Shown here in pieces: positions 2,103-63,385 of a stretch of 64,000 nt of DNA. Location of the stretch: positions 10,315 through 74,314 of the IMG/VR virus record IMGVR_UViG_3300010282_000006. One strand, given 5' to 3'. Position 1 is the first letter of the stretch. Every line of letters starts with the position of its first letter. A model generated the notes under the pieces. That model saw only the letters and a program-made list of their open reading frames with translations. It searched no databases and was not told where the DNA came from. This stretch comes from a virus. Taxonomy: Duplodnaviria; Heunggongvirae; Uroviricota; Caudoviricetes. The translations under genes were made by a program, and so were the position numbers.

Positions 2103-2579
2103 TTATAGAGCACGCGCAAATTGATTGTCAGATGCAAGCGTAACGCCAAGTAAATCGTCGTATCGTGTTGGACGGTTCGGGATATAGCGCCCAAACTTCA
2201 CAATGACATGCTTACCACGCAAAGCATCGAGCTTGTCTTTGATTTCTTCGGGATAATAGCCTGTGTAGATGACAAACGGACTTTCCGCGTCGTCCGCACG
2301 AAGCAAGGAGAGAAGATGATATAGCTCGTCGAATTGAAGCATTGGCTCCAAACCACCGACGACGATAGCCGTTGTGATTGGGTTGGACAGATACATCTTC
2401 ACAAGCGTTTCGTCCGATATGTCGCGGATTGGCGACTGCATGAGCGGACTATTCTGGCACAGCGCAACACTGTGTCCGGCTTCCGTGCAGCACTTCCAGT
2501 CACAAACAGCGCTTGCGATGAACATGGACGGGCGCTTATAATTACAGAAGTCCTCTGCAACAAAACCACGCAGCTTCAT
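2103..2579 (-). CDS. nrdG: anaerobic ribonucleotide reductase activating protein (small NrdG type)
   Basis: 158 aa directly downstream of nrdD; VVGGLEP, FVIYTGYYPEE and C-terminal DLLGVTLASDNQ segments resemble NrdG; Cys cluster is non-canonical (CDWKCC). Confidence 0.65.
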   Translation of the reverse strand: MKLRGFVAEDFCNYKRPSMFIASAVCDWKCCTEAGHSVALCQNSPLMQSPIRDISDETLVKMYLSNPITTAIVVGGLEPMLQFDELYHLLSLLRADDAESPFVIYTGYYPEEIKDKLDALRGKHVIVKFGRYIPNRPTRYDDLLGVTLASDNQFARAL

Positions 2580-4591
2580 TACATCATCCCGTCCTTCTGG
2601 AGCACGTTAAACCAACGGCGTCTGTCGAACTCACGCTTGCGAATTTTCTGGTAGCTGCTGACGGGGACATAAAAGCCGACGACGCGAGCGTAGGTGTCGG
2701 CAACGGGCTTGCCACAGTTGGGGCATGTCGCCGTACCGATAAAGGCGTGCTTATCCTCGCAGACAGAAATCTTCGTTGTGAAAGCGAAGTATATAACGCC
2801 CATTGCCGCGACATAGTTGAGCATATCCCATGCGGATTCTTTATCAGGGAAACGGTTTTCGATGTTGATGTGTGCAATGCAGCCGCCGCCACACTTGGCG
2901 TCAAACAGACTGCCAAGCCTGCACTTCTCCTGAATGGTGCATTTCTCCATCAGCGGAATCCACTGATTAGAGTAGATGAAATACTTGTCCTGCTCATAGA
3001 GGAGGTTGTCAGCCTGACAAATGACACCTGCGCAATTTTCAGCCGGAATCATCTCCACATTGAACGAAAAATCGCAGTCGAAACTGTCCTTTACTTTGTT
3101 TATCGTATCAAGGATCTTGGTGGCAAACCTGACAGCCTCATCGGAATAGCTTTTGTTCCCGACCTCATCCGTGTCAATCAGTCCGAAAAGATCCATAACC
3201 TCATACATCCCGATGCCGCCGATCGTGCAGAACTGTTTGTCCAGCTCAACTGCGCCATCCTGATAGTTCGGCAGCAAACCCTTTTCGATGTTGCGCTTGA
3301 TGATGTGGCGCATGGAAGTAAGCGCCTTGCAGTCGAGGAGAACACGCTTTTTCAGAATCTTGATGTATTCTGCCTGATCGAAATTGCTCTCGTAGGCAAT
3401 TCGGACAAGGTTGATGGTGCTGACACGGCAGGAGCCGACGGATAGCGCCGTACCGCCGATGCTGTTGATGAAGGCGTCGAGCTTTTTGGTGTCGCTGAGG
3501 AGACGGCAGCAGTTGGAAAGCACGCCGACATTATCACTACAGAAGAAATTGCTGTCAGACCAGTCAATGTTGTGATCAGAGCACCAACGCGCAAACGGCA
3601 CGTCAACAAACACGTCCCATTCGCGTGTCTTGATCATTTCGGCGACTTTCTCCGGCGTAAGCGGTTTCTTGAGCAATGAATATGTGAGCACCGGATAGGT
3701 GAACATATTTACAACGCGAATTTCGCTGACGACCTCCATAAACACCTTCTGACATTCCACCAGTTCATCAATGTGGTCGATGGCAAACGTACCGTCAGGG
3801 AAGACCACGCCGCCGAACAGGGACTCCATGTACGGATGGTCGAAGATAGAAATGTTGGTAAATGAACTCTGATCCACGCGCAGAAACGGCTGGTTCAAAC
3901 GGTAGATCAGCTTTTGGAACTGCTGACGAAGATAGTAGTCCGGATCTTTCATGTAGTATCCGTCCTCAACGTCTTTCTTCCAGAAGTACCATGCCCAAAC
4001 CAGAACATTCGGCATACCAACGGCTCCGCTCTGGCGGTTGGAAAGGAACGACACGAACTCGATCACATCGTCAAAATAGGTTGTAAGGTGCTTCGGTGCC
4101 TGATTGTTGTAGCGCTTTTTGGTGAACACGATCTCTCCGTTTACGTCCTCGAACTGACCGTTGAGGAAGAACAGCCCTTCCTCGGCGAGTCGTGTGAAAT
4201 CGTTAGCCCAACAATACGGGAAGTAACTTGCTGTTGCGCTGTCGTTGAGATAGAAACCTTTGGAAAACTCTTGCTCCAGCCATTCCTTTGCCGTACGCAA
4301 GCCCCAGCGCTTCTTGGTCTCGTAGAAAATCTTATTGAGGCCGAATAACTTATCTTCGCTCTTCCCTTTTTCCGTCATGAAACTGCGAATGTCCTTGTGA
4401 TTTGCATTTGCGTTCGGATCAATGCTCGCGTCGGCAAGCGTATCCTTGTCGACGAAATTTTCGATGAACTCCGAAAAATCCAACTGGCTCGGATGGATGC
4501 CGTTTAGATATTCAAAATCCTCGCCATATTTCTTTTTCAGGTCTTCCAAGCACCGTTCAAAGTCCTTGGAAAGTTTCAGCTCAATGTTCAT
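2579..4591 (-). CDS. nrdD: anaerobic ribonucleoside-triphosphate reductase (class III RNR)
   Basis: 670 aa; C-terminal zinc ribbon CPNCG and glycyl-radical motif RVVGFYVP. Confidence 0.9.
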   Translation of the reverse strand: MNIELKLSKDFERCLEDLKKKYGEDFEYLNGIHPSQLDFSEFIENFVDKDTLADASIDPNANANHKDIRSFMTEKGKSEDKLFGLNKIFYETKKRWGLRTAKEWLEQEFSKGFYLNDSATASYFPYCWANDFTRLAEEGLFFLNGQFEDVNGEIVFTKKRYNNQAPKHLTTYFDDVIEFVSFLSNRQSGAVGMPNVLVWAWYFWKKDVEDGYYMKDPDYYLRQQFQKLIYRLNQPFLRVDQSSFTNISIFDHPYMESLFGGVVFPDGTFAIDHIDELVECQKVFMEVVSEIRVVNMFTYPVLTYSLLKKPLTPEKVAEMIKTREWDVFVDVPFARWCSDHNIDWSDSNFFCSDNVGVLSNCCRLLSDTKKLDAFINSIGGTALSVGSCRVSTINLVRIAYESNFDQAEYIKILKKRVLLDCKALTSMRHIIKRNIEKGLLPNYQDGAVELDKQFCTIGGIGMYEVMDLFGLIDTDEVGNKSYSDEAVRFATKILDTINKVKDSFDCDFSFNVEMIPAENCAGVICQADNLLYEQDKYFIYSNQWIPLMEKCTIQEKCRLGSLFDAKCGGGCIAHINIENRFPDKESAWDMLNYVAAMGVIYFAFTTKISVCEDKHAFIGTATCPNCGKPVADTYARVVGFYVPVSSYQKIRKREFDRRRWFNVLQKDGMM

Positions 4592-7534: not shown

Positions 7535-7552
7535 GGTGCTTTTGCTTCCTCC

Positions 7553-8476
7553 TTAAATGACGAGATCATAGTCGTTGAGATACCAGAACCCCGCTTTGTT
7601 TTTCTCAACCGACTTGGCGGCGATTACGTCTAGTTTTTTGAGCGGTTGTTTTTTGAAGTTTGACGCACGGAGCGTCAGGCGTGCAGTTTTTCCGCTTCCG
7701 ATGGATCTTGTCTGGATCGCGTACCCCCAAATCGAATTGTCCTTCTTGCTGCGAAGCGGGTAGACGTCCATAATGATGAGCTTTCTGCGGTCTTTTTCGT
7801 CGCCGGTCGTCAGATCGACATAACCGAGGTTTTCGAGCTGATCCTGCATCTTGCTCTTGAAGTCAAAATCCTCCAAGTGAAGCCCTTTGACCGTTTCTTC
7901 CAGCTCGGCAAGCAGGCCGTCCATATCGGTGATCGTGTAAGACTTAGCCGCTTCGCCATTTTTTGAGACGTCGGTGGCATGACGGGAAACGATCTGTGCA
8001 AGCTCGGCGTTGAGCTTCTCTTTGGCAACCTTTTTTGCGGTTCCGCATTTGAAAAACTCAAACAGCTCGACCATGCGCAGCAGTTCGCGCGCATTACCGT
8101 ATGCGGAAAAATAGTCGAGACAGATGAGAATACCGCGTTGTCGCGTATCAAGCTGTGTTTCAGCATCCATAATCCGCAGCAACTCCATAAAAGAGTCAAT
8201 CTTCCGTCCATGGGACAGTTCGTAAAGCTGATTGGCGACGGCGGCATTGAGGTACTTAACCGACGCAATGCCTTTGGAAATAATATTGTCATCCTTGTCG
8301 AACAGGTACTTGTCCTTTGATTTGCCGAATCGCGGCGGGACGATCTTGATGCCATAGACGGCAGCGAGCTCATTGCCGCTTTTAACATCCTCTTCTCCAT
8401 TGGCGTTGTTGAGATAGGCCGTAATGAACTCGTACGGATGGTAGTAGCGGAGGTAGGCGCAGAGATAGCCGATCAT
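7553..8476 (-). CDS. dnaE: DNA polymerase III alpha (DnaE-type) C-terminal segment, separated from the N-terminal segment by an HNH-endonuclease insertion
   Basis: 307 aa starting MIGYLCAYLRYYHPYEF, matching the region just after the FNKSH fingers motif of DnaE. Confidence 0.65.
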   Translation of the reverse strand: MIGYLCAYLRYYHPYEFITAYLNNANGEEDVKSGNELAAVYGIKIVPPRFGKSKDKYLFDKDDNIISKGIASVKYLNAAVANQLYELSHGRKIDSFMELLRIMDAETQLDTRQRGILICLDYFSAYGNARELLRMVELFEFFKCGTAKKVAKEKLNAELAQIVSRHATDVSKNGEAAKSYTITDMDGLLAELEETVKGLHLEDFDFKSKMQDQLENLGYVDLTTGDEKDRRKLIIMDVYPLRSKKDNSIWGYAIQTRSIGSGKTARLTLRASNFKKQPLKKLDVIAAKSVEKNKAGFWYLNDYDLVI

Positions 8477-9251
8477 GCAGTAACCGATCGAATGATTATC
8501 GCGTAGTCCGCCATTACTGGCGGGGCAGACTATATCTTCCGCTCAAATGAGCGGTCTTTGCGCTTCCACGGGCAGCTCATCCTCCCGTGTACTCCCTGTT
8601 GGGATAGTCGTTTGACTTTCAGATTGTTTCTTCCAGACAAATCCAAACGCTTGCTTTGTTCTTCCGTTGAGACAATGCGAAATCGCGCCATGCGAGCATC
8701 CAGTCGCCCGTTCTGCTTCCATCGAGGAGCGATACGATGCTATGTATTCGCCGTCAAGTGTAAACTGGTCAATCGCATTTCCGCGCGGAGAGCGCAGACC
8801 GTGAACAAGGGCGTGTTCGTTGTTTTCGCCGTATGACGCCCACTCAAGATTGCTTGACCTATTGTTGCGTTTGTTGCCGTCTTTATGGTTGACGGTCGGA
8901 AGATTGTCTGGATTTGGAATGAACGCGGTCGCCACGAGGATATGAACAGGAACTACCCACGAAGTATGATTTTTCCTCAGATTTACCACAAAGTAGCCGT
9001 CTTTGCGGTTTTTCCCAACGCTTTTCGTGAGCTTCATCGGAGCACCATTCAAAAAGCGCGTTACTCCGTTGGAGCTTGTGACGAAGCGGTCAACGCTTCT
9101 CACTTCTCCGGCGTCGCTTACCTCGTAATATCCTTCATATCCAACGATTTGCTTCCACATATCATTCTCCAATCCGCTTAGCACAGGATTGCCCTCCATT
9201 TCTGGATAGGGTTTCCCTGTTAGCGCATCTCTTCAACGCCATTTCCTGCGT
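8477..9251 (-). mobile_element. intervening sequence in dnaE carrying an HNH homing endonuclease (candidate group I intron or free-standing HEG insertion)
   Basis: 775 bp between the two dnaE segments; upstream segment ends in a stop, endonuclease ORF has its own RBS and frame. Confidence 0.55.
8543..9199 (-). CDS. HNH homing endonuclease (NUMOD4 + HNH_3 motifs)
   Basis: 218 aa; GYEGYYEVSDAGEVRS (NUMOD4-like) and VNHKDGNKRNNRSSNLEW (HNH). Confidence 0.8.
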   Translation of the reverse strand: MEGNPVLSGLENDMWKQIVGYEGYYEVSDAGEVRSVDRFVTSSNGVTRFLNGAPMKLTKSVGKNRKDGYFVVNLRKNHTSWVVPVHILVATAFIPNPDNLPTVNHKDGNKRNNRSSNLEWASYGENNEHALVHGLRSPRGNAIDQFTLDGEYIASYRSSMEAERATGCSHGAISHCLNGRTKQAFGFVWKKQSESQTTIPTGSTREDELPVEAQRPLI

Positions 9252-11732
9252 TTACTGAACGTGAGACGCACACCCATGAGCAATATGGTTCACAAAGAAT
9301 GGGCTAATCATTAACCCGAACATGTAGCTCGACGCATCGGAGATGATCTGCACAAACTCCTTGGCCTCCTGCTCAGCGACCTCGCGCGGCTGCGGCGACA
9401 TTTTACAGTAACCGTCTAAAATATCAGGAAGCGCTTTTGCCAACTCCTCCGGTTTCTTCCTCGCTATCATGCGCCGCGTATTGTCCGCCGCGCTGCCGGA
9501 ATAACCACAGATTTGCTGTAGGAATTTGATGACGTCCTCCTGATAGACGAGATAGCCATAGTTGTCGGCAAGTAGCTCGTCGATGATCGCTGACGGATTC
9601 TTGTGCGGCTTGTGCTTCATCAGGTCGTCGCGGTACGACGCGCCAGACGGACGCAGCGCCGCCGTGATGAGGCTCATATCGAAGATCGAGTGCGGCTCGT
9701 ACTGCTTGAGCATGGAGAACGCGAAGTCTCCCTCAAACTGGAAGATCCCAACGGGGGAGCGGAGCATATCCTTCCAGACAGCCTCATCGTTCCAGTTGAT
9801 TTCATGCGATTTCGGGTACGGCGTCCCGATGAGCTTGTAGGCATCCTTGATGATCTCGACGTTTTTGAGTCCGAGGATGTCGTATTTGACAAGCCCCGCG
9901 TCGTGGACGCAATCCATGTCGATTTGCAGGATCTCCTTGCCATCCGAGAGGAACGTGCCATAGTTGTCGCGCAGCGTGATCGGGCTTGCGACGATGCCGG
10001 CTGGGTGCATGGACTGCGAGATCGCAACGTCAAGAAGACCGTCGTAGTAGTAGAAGACTTCGGGATACTTCTCGCGCGTCTTTTCCTCGTTCGCCTCGAA
10101 CTCATCCTTGATCTGCGTGGAGATCTTGCCGATCCACGGATTTTTCGCGGAAATGGCGTCGTTCTCTTTTTTCAGGCGTTCAAGCTCTTTCGACAACGCT
10201 TTTACGAGTTCATCATGCGGCGTTCCACTCATCTTCTCTGGAAAGATCAGTTCTCGTGTCTTTCTATCAAAGTAGTAAGCACCGGGACATCTGGCATCAC
10301 CAAACGAAACATCAACGCCGTTATCTTTCAGAGCAGAGATAATAGAGCGTAGCTCTTTAACAGGATGCAGATGCTCGTTGTCCCACCGGACGCTCAATCC
10401 GCGACAAATCTCGTCGATCGCGCCCTTGGACTTGATCGTGCCGATGGCGAGGATGTACGCCGTTTTCTCCTGCCCGAAGCGGTTGATGATGTACTCATAC
10501 ACCTTGTCGCGGTCAGACGGCGAGACGTCGATGTCGATGTCGCCGATCTCCTTGCGGTCTTCGTTTGCAAATCGGCTAAAGACCGTTTTCCACGTTTCGG
10601 GATTGAGGTCGGTCGTGTCGGTCAGAAACGCCACACGAGAACCGCCGCACGAACCACGATTAAAGCCGAGCGGAATGTCGTGCGTCTTGCACCACGTCGC
10701 AAGCTCGCTCATAAAGAGCATGAATCCAGACATCTCGATCTTGTCGAAGACGTGCATTTCGTCCTGAATCGCCGCGCAGAAAGGCGCTTCCTGCTCCTTA
10801 GTCACCGCGCAGGAAGAGAGCTTTTCCCGCAAGCCCTGTTCGATGCGCTCCATCAAAACGCTGCGATCGCGTTCGCCGTACAAAATCGGGTACTTGAAGC
10901 TCTTGTCGAGGTCGAACGCTTCCACGGAGTCCGCGATGACGTTTGTGTTCTCGATCGCCTCAGCCCAGAGCTTTTCCGGTATGGCATCCTGCGCGCGGAA
11001 CATCTTGCACAGCTCGTCGTAGCTCTTGTAGGTAAGGTCAAACGTGTCCTCATCCGCAAACTCGATGTGCTTGGCGAGCTGCATCATCGTGCGGCACTCC
11101 GCCTTGTACTTATCAAGGCTGTGTGTATCGGTGGTTGCCACCAGCGGGATGCCGTATTTCTGCGACATCTCCGCAAGGTGACGGTTGAACGCGATCTGGT
11201 CGGGATGGTTGTGCGGTTGGATTTCGAGATAGTCGTAGTGTTTTACCAACCGTTCATAAATCGGGTGCGTAATGGAAAGGCGATTGAGGGGCGAGGCAAG
11301 ACAGGCGCTCATCTTGATCACGTTGTCGGAGATTTTGAAGAACTCATCAAACGTAATGCGCGGCTTGTAGTAGAAGTGGTCTTCCGTGCTTGAGCGGCTG
11401 ACCAGCTCGTTGATCTCGCGCAGCCCATCCATATTCTTTGCAAGGAGAATCGTATGAAAATTGTCGCGGAGCTTGGACGATTCACCGGTGTGAGGATCTT
11501 TCCAGATGAGCTTTTCCGTCAGATAGACCTCAACACCATGAATGTACTTAATACCGGCCTTGTCGCAGGCGAGTTTTTTTGCAACCCATTGGTAAACATT
11601 TCCGTGCTCCGTGAACGCAATCGCTTTTTGCCCAAGCCCAACGGCGTGCGCGATATAGTCCTGAAACTTTGTCGCGCTGTCAAGAAGCGAAAGCTCGCTG
11701 TGCAGATGAAGCGTGGTGTAGTTGTTGTTCAT
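9252..11732 (-). CDS. dnaE: DNA polymerase III alpha (DnaE-type) N-terminal segment: PHP domain and polymerase core
   Basis: 826 aa; PHP motif HLHSELSLLDS..AFTEHGNV; ORF ends in a stop at the position of the conserved FNKSH region. Confidence 0.8.
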   Translation of the reverse strand: MNNNYTTLHLHSELSLLDSATKFQDYIAHAVGLGQKAIAFTEHGNVYQWVAKKLACDKAGIKYIHGVEVYLTEKLIWKDPHTGESSKLRDNFHTILLAKNMDGLREINELVSRSSTEDHFYYKPRITFDEFFKISDNVIKMSACLASPLNRLSITHPIYERLVKHYDYLEIQPHNHPDQIAFNRHLAEMSQKYGIPLVATTDTHSLDKYKAECRTMMQLAKHIEFADEDTFDLTYKSYDELCKMFRAQDAIPEKLWAEAIENTNVIADSVEAFDLDKSFKYPILYGERDRSVLMERIEQGLREKLSSCAVTKEQEAPFCAAIQDEMHVFDKIEMSGFMLFMSELATWCKTHDIPLGFNRGSCGGSRVAFLTDTTDLNPETWKTVFSRFANEDRKEIGDIDIDVSPSDRDKVYEYIINRFGQEKTAYILAIGTIKSKGAIDEICRGLSVRWDNEHLHPVKELRSIISALKDNGVDVSFGDARCPGAYYFDRKTRELIFPEKMSGTPHDELVKALSKELERLKKENDAISAKNPWIGKISTQIKDEFEANEEKTREKYPEVFYYYDGLLDVAISQSMHPAGIVASPITLRDNYGTFLSDGKEILQIDMDCVHDAGLVKYDILGLKNVEIIKDAYKLIGTPYPKSHEINWNDEAVWKDMLRSPVGIFQFEGDFAFSMLKQYEPHSIFDMSLITAALRPSGASYRDDLMKHKPHKNPSAIIDELLADNYGYLVYQEDVIKFLQQICGYSGSAADNTRRMIARKKPEELAKALPDILDGYCKMSPQPREVAEQEAKEFVQIISDASSYMFGLMISPFFVNHIAHGCASHVQ

Positions 11733-11822
11733 TGAAAACCTTCTTTCGTTGGCTCCTCAAGAGACATGCCCGTGCAAAAGATACGGCGCTCTTTCTTGGA
11801 GCGTAATAAGTTGTTGACACAC

Positions 11823-13754
11823 CTATCCGGTTCTTCCGAAAACCTCATCCTCGTCGCCCTGCTCGGTGAGTTGCGGCGGCGGATAGGGGAGGGAAGTCGT
11901 GTACTTCGTCTTGTCCCACCCGTACTGATAGTCCAGCTCCTCTTCGGTGGAGAAGAAGCGCTTGGACGGGCGATCGTAGAACACTTCGATACTGCGTCCC
12001 TCGTATCCGTTCAGACGGTCTTTGAGAATGTCGATCACAACGTCGCCCTTGAGCGGCTTCGACGCCATCCGGTCGCGCTCTTGCACACGGTAGAGTGAGA
12101 TGATACGGTGCGCGAGGTCGATGATCGCAGAGATACCCTGCACGTCCATCTTGCTCAGACGACGCATCGCCTCGATCTTGTGCGGATGCACAACGAGGAT
12201 TACAACGACGTTGAACTTTACCGCAAAAGCAATGAGATCCATCACAAGCTCCGCCTGCTTGTCGTACTTGTTGTCATCGTTGCTTTCAAGGTTCATAGCT
12301 GTCATGTTGTCGAGGATCAGCAGCTTGACGCCGTACTTTCGCACAGAATCCTCCATCGACTGAAGGATATCCGTTTTCTTGTTTGACTCACCATCCTTAC
12401 GGATGAATAGCTTGCCGCGATAGTATTCGCTGATTGCGCGCTTGGCCTCCGGCTTGATTTTGTAGTACGGCGAACCGTCAAAATCCTTCTGCTCGACATT
12501 GCGCTGACCGGCGAAAATGTAGTTGATCCAGTTCTTTGCCTGAAAGTTTGGCAACTCTCCGGAAAACAAGTAGGCGTTTTCGCCGCGATCGAGACATCGG
12601 CAAATGACCTGATTGAGAAAGGATGACTTACCACTGCCGTTGATTCCCGTCACGATGTTCAGCGTGCCGTAAAACAGCCGCATGAGATAGCGGTCAAGCT
12701 CCGGAAGCCCCGTCTTGATGCCATCCATCGCGTCAAGATCAAGGTCTTCGATGTCGGCAAAGTCAACGACGCCGGGAACAGGGGAGTCCTTGGCGTCCAG
12801 AATGATACGGAGGACTTCCTCCTTGCCGAAGTAATACAGAACCTCGTTCAGGTCTTTGATTGGCGTTTTCTTGCCCTTCGGCGAGACATACCACCGAGGA
12901 ACCTCGACGACCTTTGTGCGCCAGCTTCCAAGACGATATATGCACTCTTTCTGCATCTTCAGGCCGGCCTCGTCGTTGTCGGAACAGACAATGATGGAGT
13001 CAAACTGCTCCAGCCAGTCCCAATTTTCCTCGATCCAGTGGAAGTTGCCGCTTCCGAGCGGGACGGAAACCGCGTTGGTGAAGCCAGCCTCGATTGCCGA
13101 AAGGCAGTCCGGCTCGCCCTCGCAGATAAGGAGAGGCACGGTCGTGTTGATACGGTTCATGTTCCACAGCAACGGCGTCGTGTCTGCATCCTTCTGACAC
13201 CAGCATTTGTTTTCGCCGTGCTCAACTTTTCTGGACGGCCTGTATTTGACCATCGTGAGGACGTCGTTGGTATCGTAGTAGTTCCAGACGATGTTCCCCT
13301 TCTCGTCTTGCCGCACGTCACAGTAGTCCAGCGTTTTCGGGCTGATTTTCCGTAGCTTGAAATACTCATAGACCTTTGACTTGTCATCGCAGACAACCTC
13401 TTTCGGATAGCGATACTGCCGACGTGTCTTCACACCAAGCTCGCCAAAAGAATACGGCATTTCCGCCCGTTCAAAGAGCCTGCGGCACGCCTCGGCGTAC
13501 GTTGCGCCCTTATACATCAGCACGTCCAGCAGATCGTAGCTTCTTTGGCACGCGCCGAAGCATCGGAAGTTGTACCCCTTCTTGTTGTAGATAAACGACG
13601 GATGATCCTCTTGATGGAACGGGCAGCAGCACTTCATGTCGCGCTCGTCGTAGTCCTGAATGTCCAGCTCCTCCACGATCAGGCGGGCATTTTCGTCGCC
13701 GAGTTTTTCCTTCGCCTGCATGATCGCGTCTCTGTCAATCTGCAAGGCGACCAC
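11823..13754 (-). CDS. bifunctional DNA primase/helicase (T7 gp4-like)
   Basis: 643 aa; zinc-binding CCCPFHQEDHPS, Toprim LLICEGEPD, DnaB-like Walker A GINGSGKSSF. Confidence 0.85.
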   Translation of the reverse strand: MVALQIDRDAIMQAKEKLGDENARLIVEELDIQDYDERDMKCCCPFHQEDHPSFIYNKKGYNFRCFGACQRSYDLLDVLMYKGATYAEACRRLFERAEMPYSFGELGVKTRRQYRYPKEVVCDDKSKVYEYFKLRKISPKTLDYCDVRQDEKGNIVWNYYDTNDVLTMVKYRPSRKVEHGENKCWCQKDADTTPLLWNMNRINTTVPLLICEGEPDCLSAIEAGFTNAVSVPLGSGNFHWIEENWDWLEQFDSIIVCSDNDEAGLKMQKECIYRLGSWRTKVVEVPRWYVSPKGKKTPIKDLNEVLYYFGKEEVLRIILDAKDSPVPGVVDFADIEDLDLDAMDGIKTGLPELDRYLMRLFYGTLNIVTGINGSGKSSFLNQVICRCLDRGENAYLFSGELPNFQAKNWINYIFAGQRNVEQKDFDGSPYYKIKPEAKRAISEYYRGKLFIRKDGESNKKTDILQSMEDSVRKYGVKLLILDNMTAMNLESNDDNKYDKQAELVMDLIAFAVKFNVVVILVVHPHKIEAMRRLSKMDVQGISAIIDLAHRIISLYRVQERDRMASKPLKGDVVIDILKDRLNGYEGRSIEVFYDRPSKRFFSTEEELDYQYGWDKTKYTTSLPYPPPQLTEQGDEDEVFGRTG

Positions 13755-28510: not shown

Positions 28511-28625
28511 TTGCGGGAAGCGGGACTTGAACCCGCAGCTTGCGAAGACTGTTCGCCGCCCGACCGTCGAGCTGTTCCCGCGTGCCGCCGCGTAAGCGGC
28601 GGTTGCCGTCTTTCCGGCTGCCAGA
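28511..28625 (-). tRNA. tRNA-like sequence with canonical T-arm and acceptor stem but a non-canonical (5-nt) anticodon loop; possible pseudo-tRNA
   Basis: GCGGGTTCAAGTCCCGC T-arm and GCGGGAA/TTCCCGC acceptor pairing; anticodon arm does not fold canonically. Confidence 0.3.
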
Positions 28626-28660: not shown

Positions 28661-28750
28661 TGGCGGAAGGGGAGGGGATCGAACCCTCGCGCCGCTTTCG
28701 CGGCCTAGCGGTTTAGCAAACCGCCCTCTTCACCGCTTGAGTACCCTTCC
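28661..28750 (-). tRNA. tRNA-Ser (anticodon GCU) with long variable arm and encoded CCA
   Basis: hand-folded cloverleaf: acceptor GGAAGGG/CCCTTCC, anticodon loop TTGCTAA, T-arm GAGGGTTCGATCCCCTC. Confidence 0.65.
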
Positions 28751-39329: not shown

Positions 39330-41273
39330 TTACGCGGTGAGGAGAGGCATAGTCGATGCGGGGGAGATGATGTAGTTCTGCGGCGCGCGCATGACCTCCT
39401 CGTACTCCTCGCGGCCTTGGAACTCATCGACCACGGCGCGGGATTCCGCGTCCATATCGTTGTAGTGCTTCTTTCCATAATCCGGCGGGAGCCACTGGCG
39501 GCTGCGCGCTGCAAAGATGTTGAGGCGGTCAATCAGGCGCTTCGCGTCGTCGTCAAACTTGATGTGGCAGGTTCCCTTCTTGTAGAACGTGGCGGTGAAG
39601 TATTTGAAGTTCATCGTCGTGCGCTGGCACTGTTCCGCAACATGCGCCACGGTGTAGGGGTCGATGGAGGAGCCGGTTTCGCCGCGATCCAGATAGTTCA
39701 AAGCGCGTTCGATGTCCGCGATTTTGCCGGAGAACTCGCGCGCTTCCAATTTCTTCTTGCCGTCATATTTCGTGTAGAATCCGTTGATGGGGAGAATGAC
39801 CTTCATACCGACCTTGTGCGCCTTATTCGTCGCCCACCCACTATAGTAGTGGATGTTCTTGGCGCATTCCGGATACCATGCGTGTTCGGCGGACAGCTCA
39901 TCGAAGAGCTTGTAGATCGCATCCTCCACGCCACGCGAGAGACGCGCGGAGATTTCCAGCATGACCTGCTGAATGTTGTAACGCGAGAAGTCGTAGTCCT
40001 TCATCTCGCTGATTTTGTTGTAATACTCATTATGGAGATCGGAGGTCATCTTTTCCGTCAGTTCGCGGCGGGAAAGCAGCAGATTCCAATACCTTGAGCG
40101 CAAACCGCGCAGATAGGAGTTGATCGTGTCGCTCGTCGCATGGTCGCACTTGTGGTCGTTCACGGAGAGCTGGATGAGCGGCTGGCTGTAAGTATCGGAG
40201 CCGTTCATAATGTACGGCGCAAGCGCGTTATACTCGCGCATGAGAGCGACGCCGGCCTTTGCCTCCATGTTGTAGCCGGAAACAAGCTGATCCATCCAGT
40301 CACCGGCGACCAGATCGGTGACTCCTGCGCTGCGTTCCTCCTCCATCTCAGCGGCGCGTTTGAGACCTTCCAGAATGTTCGACTTACGTTCCGGCTCCGG
40401 AATCCTCAGATAGACGATTGCGACCTCGACGTCGCTCTGACGCTCGGCATGTGAGAAAGCACCGGAAACAAACTCAATCTTGGCCTCGTAACGGGCGAGT
40501 TGCTCCTGCAGCACCTTCCGTCGCTGCGTGTACGGGTTGCGGATGGTCTCTGCATTGAGCAGAGATACGATTTGTCCGCCCGCGTCCTTCTGCATGGAGA
40601 TCGCCTTGAGTAGGTGTTCGTCTCCATTGGAAAACGGCGGATTCATCAGGATCACGTCGTAGTGCTTCATGGTGAAGTAGGTGAGAAAGTCGTCCGACAC
40701 GACACGATAGCCCTTGCCTTTGAGGATCATCTGAAGATTGGCGTCGCGTTCGATGCAGTCCACTCGTTCCATAAAGAAATCGTCCCGATAGTTCCCGTGC
40801 TTGTGGTTGAAGCACTTGAGCGCACAGGAAATCAAGTCGCCCTTTCCGGCGGACGGTTCCAACATTGTATCCGCGTACCGCCAGTCGATCAGATTGACCA
40901 TGCGACCGGCAAGCGCCGTCGGTGTCGGAAAAAACTCTGCATCAGGGGAGGCTGGAAGTGCTCGGACATCCGCGTGCAGCACTTCTGCTCTGTGCTCTGC
41001 ATACCAGTCAGCGAAAATTCTCTTGCCCTCTGCGACGGTTTTGCAGCGACCGATGGGGTTTGTGCGAAAATAGTTGCCGGTGCGCTCGGTGTAGTATTCC
41101 ACATCCATCGGCTTATCCTTATTCCAATGCTCGACCGCAGGCGTGCCGTCCATATAGAAGATCCCGCGAATCACGCCGACCGGCTGCGCGTCCTTGTGGA
41201 TGATGACGCTGCGCTGATAGGCCGGTTTCTCCCATCTGGTACAGCGCTCGGTTTTTTCGGTGTAGTAAAACAT
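39330..41273 (-). CDS. N6-adenine DNA methyltransferase, gamma-class (FPTP motif X, EPSAGKG motif I, NPPF motif IV) with ~400-aa C-terminal domain of unknown function
   Basis: 648 aa after trimming to RBS-preceded MFYYTEK. Confidence 0.75.
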   Translation of the reverse strand: MFYYTEKTERCTRWEKPAYQRSVIIHKDAQPVGVIRGIFYMDGTPAVEHWNKDKPMDVEYYTERTGNYFRTNPIGRCKTVAEGKRIFADWYAEHRAEVLHADVRALPASPDAEFFPTPTALAGRMVNLIDWRYADTMLEPSAGKGDLISCALKCFNHKHGNYRDDFFMERVDCIERDANLQMILKGKGYRVVSDDFLTYFTMKHYDVILMNPPFSNGDEHLLKAISMQKDAGGQIVSLLNAETIRNPYTQRRKVLQEQLARYEAKIEFVSGAFSHAERQSDVEVAIVYLRIPEPERKSNILEGLKRAAEMEEERSAGVTDLVAGDWMDQLVSGYNMEAKAGVALMREYNALAPYIMNGSDTYSQPLIQLSVNDHKCDHATSDTINSYLRGLRSRYWNLLLSRRELTEKMTSDLHNEYYNKISEMKDYDFSRYNIQQVMLEISARLSRGVEDAIYKLFDELSAEHAWYPECAKNIHYYSGWATNKAHKVGMKVILPINGFYTKYDGKKKLEAREFSGKIADIERALNYLDRGETGSSIDPYTVAHVAEQCQRTTMNFKYFTATFYKKGTCHIKFDDDAKRLIDRLNIFAARSRQWLPPDYGKKHYNDMDAESRAVVDEFQGREEYEEVMRAPQNYIISPASTMPLLTA

Positions 41274-41552
41274 TCCGTTCCTCCTTTTCAAATTTGCTGC
41301 TTGCACTCTTACCAGAGAACGATTTGTGAATTTGCTAACTGAACAAAAAAAGACGCCGGATTGCTCCGGCGTCTCACAATTTACAGCAGCTCTACACAGG
41401 TCAGATAGTCATATTCGTCTCCATCAACGGATACGGTGTCGCCGCTCTCAAAGAGGTTTTGCAGCCACTCGTCGTATGCCTCCGGGCTTCCGGCGTTCCA
41501 GCGCTTTTCGTCCAGCCACTCACGGAGCGCGCGGACGCTGGAGAACGTGTAG

Positions 41553-63308: not shown

Positions 63309-63385
63309 GCGGGAGTAGCTCAATTTGGCGGAGCACCGGTCTTCCAAACCGGGTGTTGCGGGTTCGAGTCCCGTTTCCCGCTCCA
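63309..63385 (+). tRNA. tRNA-Gly (anticodon UCC), CCA encoded
   Basis: hand-folded cloverleaf: acceptor GCGGGAG/TTCCCGC, anticodon stem CCGGT/ACCGG loop CTTCCAA, T-arm GCGGGTTCGAGTCCCGT. Confidence 0.75.

Follow-up and report, generated by a model that had tools for sequence, protein, structure and literature searches.

The DnaE-type replicative polymerase gene of this phage appears, with a probability that we put at roughly 0.93, to be interrupted by a mobile 814-nt group I intron of the IA type, with P7.1 and P7.2. Judging from the alignments, the intron sits inside the codon that matches the lysine of the finger-domain FNKSH motif, the region in which the original prediction had placed the insertion. 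Positions below are those of the window, i.e., the entire 64,000-nt stretch of viral DNA that was analysed; the three open reading frames (ORFs) and the intron all lie on its minus strand (Table 1).

Table 1. Features of the interrupted polymerase locus
Feature	Position	Strand	Details
DnaE N-terminal ORF	11732..9252	-	826 aa; end ...FVNHIAHGCASHVQ*
HNH ORF as first called	9199..8543	-	218 aa
DnaE C-terminal ORF	8476..7553	-	307 aa; start MIGYLCAYLRYYHPYEF
DnaE (Pol III alpha type) exon 1	9314..11732	-	codons 1-806 and base 1 of codon 807
DnaE exon 2	7553..8499	-	stop codon 7555..7553
Predicted group I intron, IA type (with P7.1, P7.2)	8500..9313	-	814 nt
P1 hairpin	9301..9317	-	exon GGGU (9317..9314) and intron UAA with guide UUAGCCC (9307..9301)
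P3 5' strand	9291..9298	-	UCUUUGUG; partner 8562..8555 (CGCAAAGA)
Two P3.1-like extra hairpins between P3 and J3/4	9225..9288	-	RNAalifold, RNAfold
J3/4, P4 and P5	9184..9222	-	J3/4 UAA; P4 CAGGG/UCCUG; P5 CCCUAUCCA-GAAA-UGGAGGG; RNAfold, RNAalifold
P6 and P6a 5' strands	9170..9182	-	GCU 9182..9180; CGGAUUG 9176..9170; duplex with 8626..8615
Homing endonuclease gene	8543..9160	-	205 aa, I-HmuI family, in P6a loop
Dual-use stretch	8543..8626	-	84 nt, endonuclease coding and ribozyme core
Ribozyme 3' core	8500..8611	-	P7 5' 8611..8605; P7.1 8604..8593; P7.2 8589..8567; P3' 8562..8555; P8 8554..8539; P9.0/P9 8526..8500
J8/7 and P7 3' strand	8538..8527	-	AAGAUAUAGUCU

Precise excision would restore an intact polymerase

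The 826-aa ORF carries the PHP, DNA_pol3_alpha and DNA_pol3_finger domains (Pfam), in agreement with its predicted identity as the N-terminal, PHP-plus-core segment; the PHP, polymerase core and finger domains are thus all encoded in exon 1, as expected of DnaE (Pol III alpha). The 307-aa ORF corresponds to positions 801-1044 of the 1190-position DNA polymerase profile phrog_405 (PHROGs), which bears out its assignment to the DnaE C-terminus. The closest polymerase from an isolate is that of Clostridioides phage LIBA6276 (41% amino acid identity). The two ORFs are separated by 775 nt, of which, as had been counted, only 118 nt (52 + 66) fall outside the HNH ORF. This gap had been taken for the insert, but the real one is longer, running from 9313 to 8500, and thereby begins upstream of the first ORF's stop codon and ends upstream of the second ORF's start.

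The intron begins with UAAUGAUUAGCCC and ends with ...ACUACGCG, its terminal G lying at 8500. Exon 1 ends in ...UUC GGG U, a boundary fixed by comparison with protein homologs and with L001, an allele that lacks the intron; relative to L001, the window differs by an indel of exactly these 814 nt. Exon 2 starts with AU AAU CAU UCG, which completes Tyr807 and continues as NHSIGYC..., so that YNHSIGYC makes up eight exon-2 codons upstream of the ATG at 8476; the 826-aa ORF, for its part, reads through into the intron over its final 20 codons. Tyr807, the split codon, aligns with the Lys of FNKSH in an alignment with Thermus Pol III alpha; in the family of the window DnaE, the equivalent motif reads FGYNHS.

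Deletion of 9313..8500 in silico yields a single in-frame ORF of 1121 aa, in which ...SSYMFG is joined to YNHSIGYCMIGY..., with a predicted ligated exon junction of ...UUCGGGU|AUAAUCAU.... Over 100 homologs without an interruption (1087-1134 aa, 66-88% identical) match it colinearly and cover 92-100% of its length, and 21 aligned homologs show no gap at the junction, SSYMFGYNHSIGYCMIGYLCAYLRYYHP; the product also aligns across the junction with the Pol III alpha structures of Thermus and E. coli. The exact splice points that the joining of the exons had been expected to reveal were obtained from homologs and from L001. Because excision of exactly 814 bases restores an intact polymerase, the insertion would be a classic selfish element rather than the mark of a broken or split gene.

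Splice-site pairings and predicted splicing pathway

P1 comprises 7 bp, with a U.G pair at the 5' splice site (U9314), and is predicted by both RNAfold and RNAalifold. P10 comprises 6 bp between UGAUUA (9310..9305) and exon-2 UAAUCA (8498..8493), and G8500 is the final intron base, as expected of the omega G. Among relatives, changes in the guide accompany changes at synonymous positions of the exon (guide GGUC where the exon has GGC), and L288 and L294 carry compensatory changes in P10, where the guide UGGUU faces exon-2 AACCA.

If the element splices as group I introns are known to, P1 would form in the pre-mRNA by pairing of the guide with the four bases that end the exon, GGGU, and the three that open the intron, whereupon a free guanosine bound in P7 would attack after U9314. 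The guide would then hold exon 2 through P10 (UGAUUA with UAAUCA), terminal G8500 would enter the G site with the assistance of P9.0, and exon ligation would produce the mRNA for the 1121-aa polymerase, with FGYNHS restored.

The ribozyme core is supported by covariation

Every helix of the group I core, P3-P4-P5-P6-P7-P8-P9 with the P3/P7 pseudoknot, is present and supported by covariation. The 5' strand of P3 lies directly 3' of P1, and the window intron has no P2. Of the 17 full-length introns at this site, 15 form P3 with 7-8 bp, and compensatory changes occur in the helix; in L304 and L310 it contains a 1-nt bulge. For the ORF-less relative L296, the Rfam model gives the same alignment of P3. 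The first of the extra hairpins pairs CCAU with AUGG (9288..9274), and the second pairs GCGUCUC with GAGAUGC (9269..9225) and encloses an inner hairpin, AACGC-AGGAAAUG-GCGUU; the UAA that stops the exon-1 frame (9254..9252) falls within this region. In the second hairpin, which has 9 pairs, 6 show compensatory changes (RNAalifold, six relatives); both hairpins are predicted by RNAfold, and neither is present in L296. P1, P4, P5 and the two extra hairpins were also found by RNAalifold on the six relatives. In L082, P5 has another sequence but forms the same helix. P6 reads GCU/AGU or GCC/GGU, and P6a sequences are wholly different between lineages, yet complementary throughout.

Applied to the 3' halves of introns at this site (21 distinct sequences), RNAalifold recovered P7, P7.1, P7.2, P8 and P9 without guidance, and 15 of the 25 pairs carry compensatory changes. 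When pairs of the named structure were counted, 96.4% of cells were paired and 18 of 28 pairs had changed on both sides, values reached by none of 500 shuffles; slid controls gave 30-44%. For the mini-intron, the folding energy is -107 kcal/mol (z = -4.1). P7.1 (UCCC/GGGA) and P7.2 (CACGGG/CCCGUG) are each 100% paired over the 21 relatives, with compensatory changes, and their position between P7 and P3' is that of subgroup IA, most likely IA2-like. The layout is atypical in the missing P2 and in the two hairpins between P3 and J3/4; P2 and P3.1 are given as optional pairings in a review-type statement (PMC3873408).

The Rfam search that had been suggested for finding the core gave, in the window, only a partial RF00028 match (17.8 bits, E = 0.4) at 8539..8509, covering model positions 220-251, which is the invariant J8/7-P7'-P9 segment. 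The match is partial and low because the ORF splits the ribozyme core; L296 (270 nt), the ORF-less relative at the same site, is matched by RF00028 over its full length (37.8 bits, E = 4e-6). The RF00028 gathering score of 50 bits, a curation cut-off and not a structural feature, is reached neither in the window nor in the same-site relatives, while other DnaE introns of relatives score up to 84.8 bits.

An I-HmuI-like endonuclease ORF overlaps the predicted core

The HNH endonuclease with a NUMOD4 domain that had been read from the sequence is confirmed by Pfam (NUMOD4 PF07463, 6.5e-12; HNH_3 PF13392, 2.2e-7). Its ribosome-binding site is also present, as GGAG at 9170..9167, but it lies 7 nt upstream of ATG 9160 (MWKQIVGYEGYYEVSD), which, and not ATG 9199, is the conserved start; the MWK start is kept in the lineage-A relatives L082, L285, L292, L302, L306 and L313. 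The protein matches I-HmuI (PDB 1U3E, E = 3.8e-13), with HKDGNK.NN...NL.W conserved, and phrog_59 (E = 1.7e-45), the commonest intron endonuclease family in polymerase introns of Bastillevirinae (PMC11878797). PF22083 and PF07453 (I-HmuI-NUMOD-like and NUMOD1) fall just under their cut-offs. On these matches, the enzyme is classified as an I-HmuI-like HNH endonuclease, with NUMOD4, a His-Me finger HNH domain and a predicted C-terminal NUMOD-type DNA-binding module. The conserved TTYGGNTAYAAYCAYTC region is a candidate target.

The final 27 endonuclease codons and the stop also form P6a', P6', J6/7, the 5' strand of P7, P7.1, P7.2, P3' and half of P8, with the UGA stop falling in the P8 loop. 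The same overlap, in the same frame, is found in L082, L285 and L302. Translation of exon 1 extends 60 nt into the intron, and that of the endonuclease crosses the 3' core; both could interfere with ribozyme folding. Since the last 84 nt of its ORF are ribozyme core, a ribosome completing the endonuclease would have to unfold P6a' to P8, and splicing and endonuclease translation are therefore probably mutually exclusive on any one transcript. That the conserved overlap is a built-in splice-or-translate switch rather than an accident of a lost stop codon, and that the P2-less, two-hairpin layout defines a distinct subclass, is a speculative and rather improbable extension. If true, each transcript would either fold and splice, giving polymerase, or be translated, giving endonuclease, and the layout would mark a subclass of such phage introns that is specialised to the genes of C-family polymerases.

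Distribution and mobility

Public metagenomes and viral contigs contain at least 23 introns at this site, with extensive compensatory changes among them; the family includes ORF-less forms and forms with different endonucleases. Of the 80 viral DnaE loci, 74 lack the intron, among them the closest (L002-L004, 93% amino acid identity). The hosts of the related introns share only 42-62% amino acid identity with the window in the flanking exons (70% across an 81-aa stretch of L302), whereas their ribozymes are 67-85% identical in nucleotides and their endonucleases 58-68% in amino acids. This presence/absence polymorphism and the discordance between host and intron point to ongoing homing. By analogy with I-HmuI and other intron endonucleases, the enzyme would cut or nick intron-less DnaE alleles of co-infecting relatives, and repair of the cut allele would copy the intron in.

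Alternative explanations

Endonuclease insertions have split some genes of T4-like phages, and the original prediction left room for a split gene beside an intron whose core overlaps the endonuclease ORF. A free-standing homing endonuclease would then have cut dnaE, and the 826-aa and 307-aa polypeptides would assemble. Gene calling does indeed give three separate ORFs, with an ATG at 8476 for the downstream one, and in public annotations of comparable cases, e.g., Thomasclavelia phage TR-TP1, an HNH gene is flanked by two CDSs labelled 'DNA polymerase'. However, the invariant YNHSIGYC is still encoded unchanged just upstream of that ATG, where as non-coding sequence it would be lost, and the N-terminal fragment would gain a 20-residue intron-encoded tail that matches no homolog. 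Moreover, the inter-ORF sequence together with 84 nt of the endonuclease ORF constitutes a covariation-supported group I core, and the guide tracks synonymous exon changes, which is sensible only if P1 and P10 are used. We thus regard a split gene as extremely unlikely, leaving the intron with its 84-nt overlap. An intron that has lost splicing, with dnaE a pseudogene or the contig that of a defective phage, is very unlikely: the case for splicing here comes from sequence, Rfam stays under its threshold in the window and P9.0 is weak, with only 2 bp, but every helix is intact in the window itself (P1, 7 bp; P3, 8; P4, 5-6; P6a, 7; P7, 5; P7.1, 4; P7.2, 6; P8, 6; P9, 6; P10, 6), the invariant junction bases of the same-site family are all present, and both exons and the endonuclease ORF are open.

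An element removed at the protein level, either an intein or a 'fractured gene' with split-intein halves flanking an endonuclease gene, deserved consideration, given that DnaE is a well-known intein host, a dnaE intein has been reported (PMC4853749) and fractured genes with endonucleases have been described in metagenomes (PMC2677866). The sequence refutes it. A continuous reading across the insert, which the original prediction had named as evidence for an intein, meets 25 stop codons in the exon-1 frame; the length of the insert is not a multiple of 3 that would keep a continuous ORF in phase; the extra residues number only 20 at the end of exon 1, with none before exon 2; and Pfam found no Hint/intein domain.

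Relation to known systems and significance

The preferred reading, a group I intron, has a close parallel in the I-HmuI system, which shares the endonuclease family (NUMOD4, HNH, I-HmuI NUMOD-like), the location of the endonuclease in a ribozyme loop and the IA-type ribozyme. There, however, the host gene is an A-family polymerase, whereas here it is C-family (DnaE, with a PHP domain), in a different, uncultured phage lineage. The T4 td intron with I-TevI likewise has its ORF in the P6a loop and both P7.1 and P7.2, and the core strings are near-identical (CUAAC.GGGAAACC, CAAUCCYGUGCUAA, AACGACUAUCCC and GAUAUAGUCUG). The td endonuclease, however, is GIY-YIG rather than HNH, and its ORF is confined to the loop, whereas that of the window intron continues through P7 to P8. 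The window intron also differs in having no P2 and in the two hairpins that separate P3 from J3/4. The DnaE introns of related uncultured phages (L064/L066/L068 and L081) are also group I and interrupt the same gene family, but at other sites (e.g., inside the YQED motif region), and several have no ORF; these other-site introns have IA-type 3' cores, and L064 matches RF00028 with 84.8 and 38.9 bits. Cyanobacterial split-intein DnaE and bacterial dnaE inteins, as cited in PMC2814812 and PMC4853749, similarly place a selfish element at a conserved dnaE site and leave an intact polymerase after expression; those act on the protein, whereas the interruption in the window, which contains no intein sequence, would be spliced out of the RNA.

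Our literature search turned up no paper that describes a phage dnaE interrupted by a group I intron. Automatic gene calling divides this polymerase into two ORFs, seemingly unrelated, and an HNH gene, whereas the splice points give the true 1121-aa replicase; the deposited phage genomes TR-TP1/TP2 seem to show the same misannotation. This is an ordinary mobile intron in a less familiar host gene, and the general understanding of introns is unchanged, but the same-site family provides a ready-made covariation data set. In these uncultured phages, for whose polymerases the nearest counterparts among isolates are those of Firmicutes phages, the classical partnership of group I intron and I-HmuI-type endonuclease has spread into C-family (DnaE) polymerases.

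An intron in the phage dnaE gene

Comparative sequence analysis and RNA modelling identify the insert in the phage dnaE gene as a type IA group I intron carrying an I-HmuI-type HNH endonuclease, with splicing predicted. The original prediction of a polymerase gene interrupted by an HNH insertion proved exact in the terminal sequences that it gave, and correct in its arithmetic (775 nt between the polymerase ORFs, 118 nt of them outside the HNH ORF); the three ORFs are consecutive and lie on the minus strand. The insertion does lie in the FNKSH region, essentially at the spot proposed, as seen in an alignment to Thermus Pol III alpha. Pfam assigned no domain to the 307-aa downstream ORF.

Coordinates of the features (window positions unless a locus is named)
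Feature	Position	Strand	Description
ORF 1	11732..9252	-	826 aa; PHP, DNA_pol3_alpha, DNA_pol3_finger (Pfam)
ORF 2	9199..8543	-	218 aa; NUMOD4, HNH_3, NUMOD1, I-HmuI-NUMOD-like (Pfam)
ORF 3	8476..7553	-	307 aa; DNA polymerase profile positions 801-1044 of 1190 (PHROGs)
Exon 1	9314..11732	-
Group I intron	9313..8500	-	814 nt
Endonuclease gene, conserved start	8543..9160	-	205 aa
Exon 2	7553..8499	-
Partial Rfam match	8539..8509	-	31 nt; model positions 220-251
NrdD	2579-4591	-	anaerobic ribonucleotide reductase
658-aa protein	39330-41306	-	Dam-like N6-adenine methyltransferase region, DUF4942
tRNA Thr-AGU	28512-28581	-
tRNA Ser-GCU	28661-28750	-
tRNA Gly-UCC	63309-63385	+
Other-site dnaE introns	L064 1700-1960, 2496-2767, 3134-3443		also in L066 and L068
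Other-site dnaE intron	L081 about 2032-2103

The exon 1-intron boundary reads ...AGC UAC AUG UUC GGG U↓UAAUGAUUAGCCC... and the intron-exon 2 boundary ...GGCGGACUACGCG↓AU AAU CAU UCG AUC GGU UAC UGC AUG... (arrows, splice sites). When U9314 is joined to A8499, 814 nt are lost and a single 1121-aa ORF results, with the junction SSYMFG-Y-NHSIGYCMIGYLCAYLRYYHP, the predicted ligated-exon sequence being ...UACAUGUUCGGGU-AUAAUCAUUCG...; the junction Tyr is obtained with these boundaries and with no alternative placement. Among 5.8 billion proteins searched, over 100 homologs of 1087-1134 aa proved uninterrupted, matching 92-100% of the predicted protein at 66-88% identity, and the junction region is gap-free and nearly invariant in an alignment of 21 uninterrupted homologs. 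L001, the contig encoding the closest homolog, carries an intron-less allele, relative to which the window has exactly 814 extra bases between L001 positions 4671 and 4676 (blastn). YMFGYNHS aligns with YGFNKSHA of Thermus Pol III alpha, which places the split codon opposite the Lys of FNKSH, a motif of the finger domain.

Identity to L001 is uneven around the insertion site: 95% over the 866 nt of exon 1 adjoining the intron (9316-10181), 87% farther upstream (10372-12065) and only 77% in exon 2 (7546-8497). Recombination or co-conversion are possible origins of this mosaic.

At gathering thresholds, Rfam detected only tRNAs in the window and no group I intron. The sole group I match in a permissive scan was partial (17.8 bits, E=0.4), spanning the near-universal GAAGAUAUAGUC (J8/7-P7') and P9. 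The covariance model is unable to bridge the 540-nt endonuclease ORF because the ORF splits the core; given this failure, we relied on relatives and manual modelling. In the ORF-less, 270-nt intron of L296, at the same site, RF00028 matches over its full length (37.8 bits, E=4e-6).

Introns at the same site in other loci

Same-site introns were found in at least 23 loci, each followed by YNHS[IV][AGS]YC. A search of viral contigs with the endonuclease recovered L082, in which a homologous intron interrupts the same codon of a diverged DnaE and encodes an endonuclease with 56% aa identity. Further relatives were recovered by scanning metagenomes for GAAGATATAGTCT-N(20-50)-ATAAYCAYTC and viral contigs for the P1 string; the exact 14-mer GTCAAACGACTATC gave mostly chance matches in viral contigs, which were filtered by a second motif. 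The metagenome scan also returned five loci (L290, L299, L307, L309 and L314) with group I-like 3' ends (GAAGATATAGTCT...AAATG↓ATAATCATTCT) followed by sequence other than DnaE; these may be introns of another gene whose 3' exon shares the same first ten bases by chance. No match to the locus was obtained by megablast among 50,697 phage records. Distant blastn of the 3' core yielded weak matches only, the best to a 'putative intron' of the polymerase in an Aeromonas phage.

The same-site introns of L296 and L311 (377 nt) have no ORF, and the P6a loops of L288 and L294 hold unrelated ORFs of 231 aa and 243 aa, respectively. The presence of unrelated ORFs, or none, at the same codon implies that ribozyme and endonuclease cargo are exchanged independently.

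Covariation supports the ribozyme structure

RNAalifold, given 21 distinct 3' halves aligned with MAFFT, recovered P7, P7.1, P7.2, P8 and P9 unguided, with compensatory changes in 15 of 25 pairs. For the named structure including P9.0, 96.4% of the cells were paired and 18 of 28 pairs had changes on both sides, values attained by none of 500 shuffles; sliding the partners by 1-3 columns left 30-44% of cells paired. MAFFT aligns P3 of L082 incorrectly, and likewise P8 in some rows, which depresses the counted P8 pairing (88%). The long-range P3 joins intron nt 16-23 (UCUUUGUG) to nt 752-759 (CGCAAAGA), directly 5' of P8; 15 of 17 full-length introns form it with 7-8 bp, L304 and L310 showing a 1-nt bulge, and its sequence varies in a compensatory manner (CCAAGUG/UGCUUGG, CGAUGUG/CGCAUCG, CUAUGUG/CGCAUAG). 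For L296, the Rfam alignment shows the same P3 pairing. An earlier P3 candidate, GCGCU (just 5' of J3/4) with AGCGC, was rejected, as it showed no compensatory change, unlike the adopted pairing.

P6 is either GCU/AGU or GCC/GGU, and P6a (CGGAUUG/CAAUCUG in the window) flanks the ORF on both sides, its sequences unrelated across lineages but always complementary. In the 5' half, RNAalifold on six sequences gave P1, P4, P5 and two extra hairpins; 13 of the 35 pairs changed in a compensatory way. RNAfold of the window intron without the ORF produced P1, P4, P5, P6a, P7.1, P7.2, P8, P9 and P3 (-107 kcal/mol, z = -4.1). The guide sequence covaries with synonymous exon positions: a GGC Gly codon accompanies guide GGUC instead of GCCC, and AAC in exon 2 accompanies UGGUU instead of UGAUU, a pattern not easily accounted for without working P1 and P10 helices.

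P2 is absent from the window intron and present in L082; the window intron has two hairpins separating P3 from the J3/4 UAA, and L296 has neither. P2 and P3.1 are among the optional group I pairings, and intron ORFs sometimes reach across adjacent pairings (PMC3873408), so these peripheral features are variations rather than departures. Scanned for promoters and terminators, the intron showed no convincing candidate, its lone 'terminator' being the P1 hairpin (9301-9317, minus strand) followed by the U-rich P3 strand (AUUCUUUGUG). The resemblance is most likely coincidental; alternatively, transcription entering the intron could pause or end there.

The original prediction had also allowed for a split gene, with the polymerase made as two polypeptides. 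This is very improbable: eight invariant residues, still encoded intact 5' of ATG 8476, would be lost, and the covarying RNA structure would be left unaccounted for. A decayed intron that no longer splices is unlikely, all helices and junctions being intact in the window itself. An intein or fractured gene was rejected because a straight reading across the insert in the exon-1 frame meets 25 stop codons, and no intein domains are present.

The endonuclease gene overlaps the ribozyme core

The conserved endonuclease start is ATG 9160 (MWKQIVGYEGYYEVSD); GGAG precedes it by 7 nt within the P6a loop, and the same MWK start occurs in the lineage-A relatives (L082, L285, L292, L302, L306 and L313); the upstream ATG 9199 of the 218-aa ORF falls within P5. 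The protein matches I-HmuI (PDB 1U3E, E=3.8e-13) and phrog_59, the commonest family in Bastillevirinae polymerase-gene introns (PMC11878797).

An overlap of core and endonuclease ORF, one option of the original prediction, is present: the final 84 nt of the gene (8626..8543) double as P6a', P6', P7 5', P7.1, P7.2, P3' and half of P8, with the stop codon inside the P8 loop. Frame and overlap are identical in L082, L285 and L302, and in L292, L306 and L313 the ORF extends nearly to the 3' splice site. In a second lineage, the ORF either ends where P7 begins, at the UAA in GU-UAA-CGACUA (L293, L297, L303), or continues into the 3' core (L304, L310); judging from these sequences, the overlap seems to have arisen by read-through once that stop was lost. 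A regulatory role of the overlap is possible. The intron-less site in L002, a candidate target of the endonuclease, reads TCGAGCTACATGTTCGGCTACAATCATTCGATCGGC.

Probable lateral spread and other introns in dnaE

The intron is absent from the site in 74 of 80 viral DnaE loci, including the nearest relatives L002-L004 (93% aa identity over the junction region). Flanking exons of the intron-bearing hosts share 42-62% aa identity with those of the window (70% in L302 across a short segment of 81 aa), compared with 67-85% nt identity for the ribozymes and 58-68% aa identity for the endonucleases. Similar introns in such divergent hosts fit lateral spread.

The window genes form a module for phage replication and nucleotide metabolism (primase-helicase, PD-(D/E)XK nuclease, ERF, ThyX, dNMP kinase, NT5C and anaerobic NrdD), the NrdD pointing to an anaerobic host. 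Of its three tRNAs, only Ser and Gly exceed the Rfam threshold. The closest polymerase of an isolate is that of Clostridioides phage LIBA6276 (41% aa identity).

The element belongs with the IA group I introns bearing an I-HmuI-type HNH endonuclease, as known from polymerase genes of Bacillus phage SPO1 and Bastillevirinae, and differs in its C-family DnaE host gene, phage lineage and some peripheral RNA features. A literature search of incomplete coverage found no published description of a group I intron in phage dnaE; in our data, such introns are common in public metagenomes. The main value of the finding lies in annotation, together with a tidy covariation family.

Several deposited phages have interrupted dnaE genes. 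In Thomasclavelia phage TR-TP1 (L317, PQ571309.1 68847-74295), two 'DNA polymerase' CDSs surround a 348-aa HNH endonuclease; it was rejected as a same-site case, as its DnaE is interrupted at about residue 552, a different site. DnaE of TR-TP2 is likewise deposited as two CDSs around an HNH endonuclease, and in Lysinibacillus phage LC76P1 the match is spread across 4.1 kb and three 'hypothetical' CDSs. All three interruptions are probably unannotated introns. Related uncultured phages have up to three additional group I introns at different sites in dnaE, as in L064: RF00028 matches two of them, at 84.8 and 38.9 bits, and the third shows an IA-type 3' core. This family of DnaE polymerases appears to be an intron hot spot.
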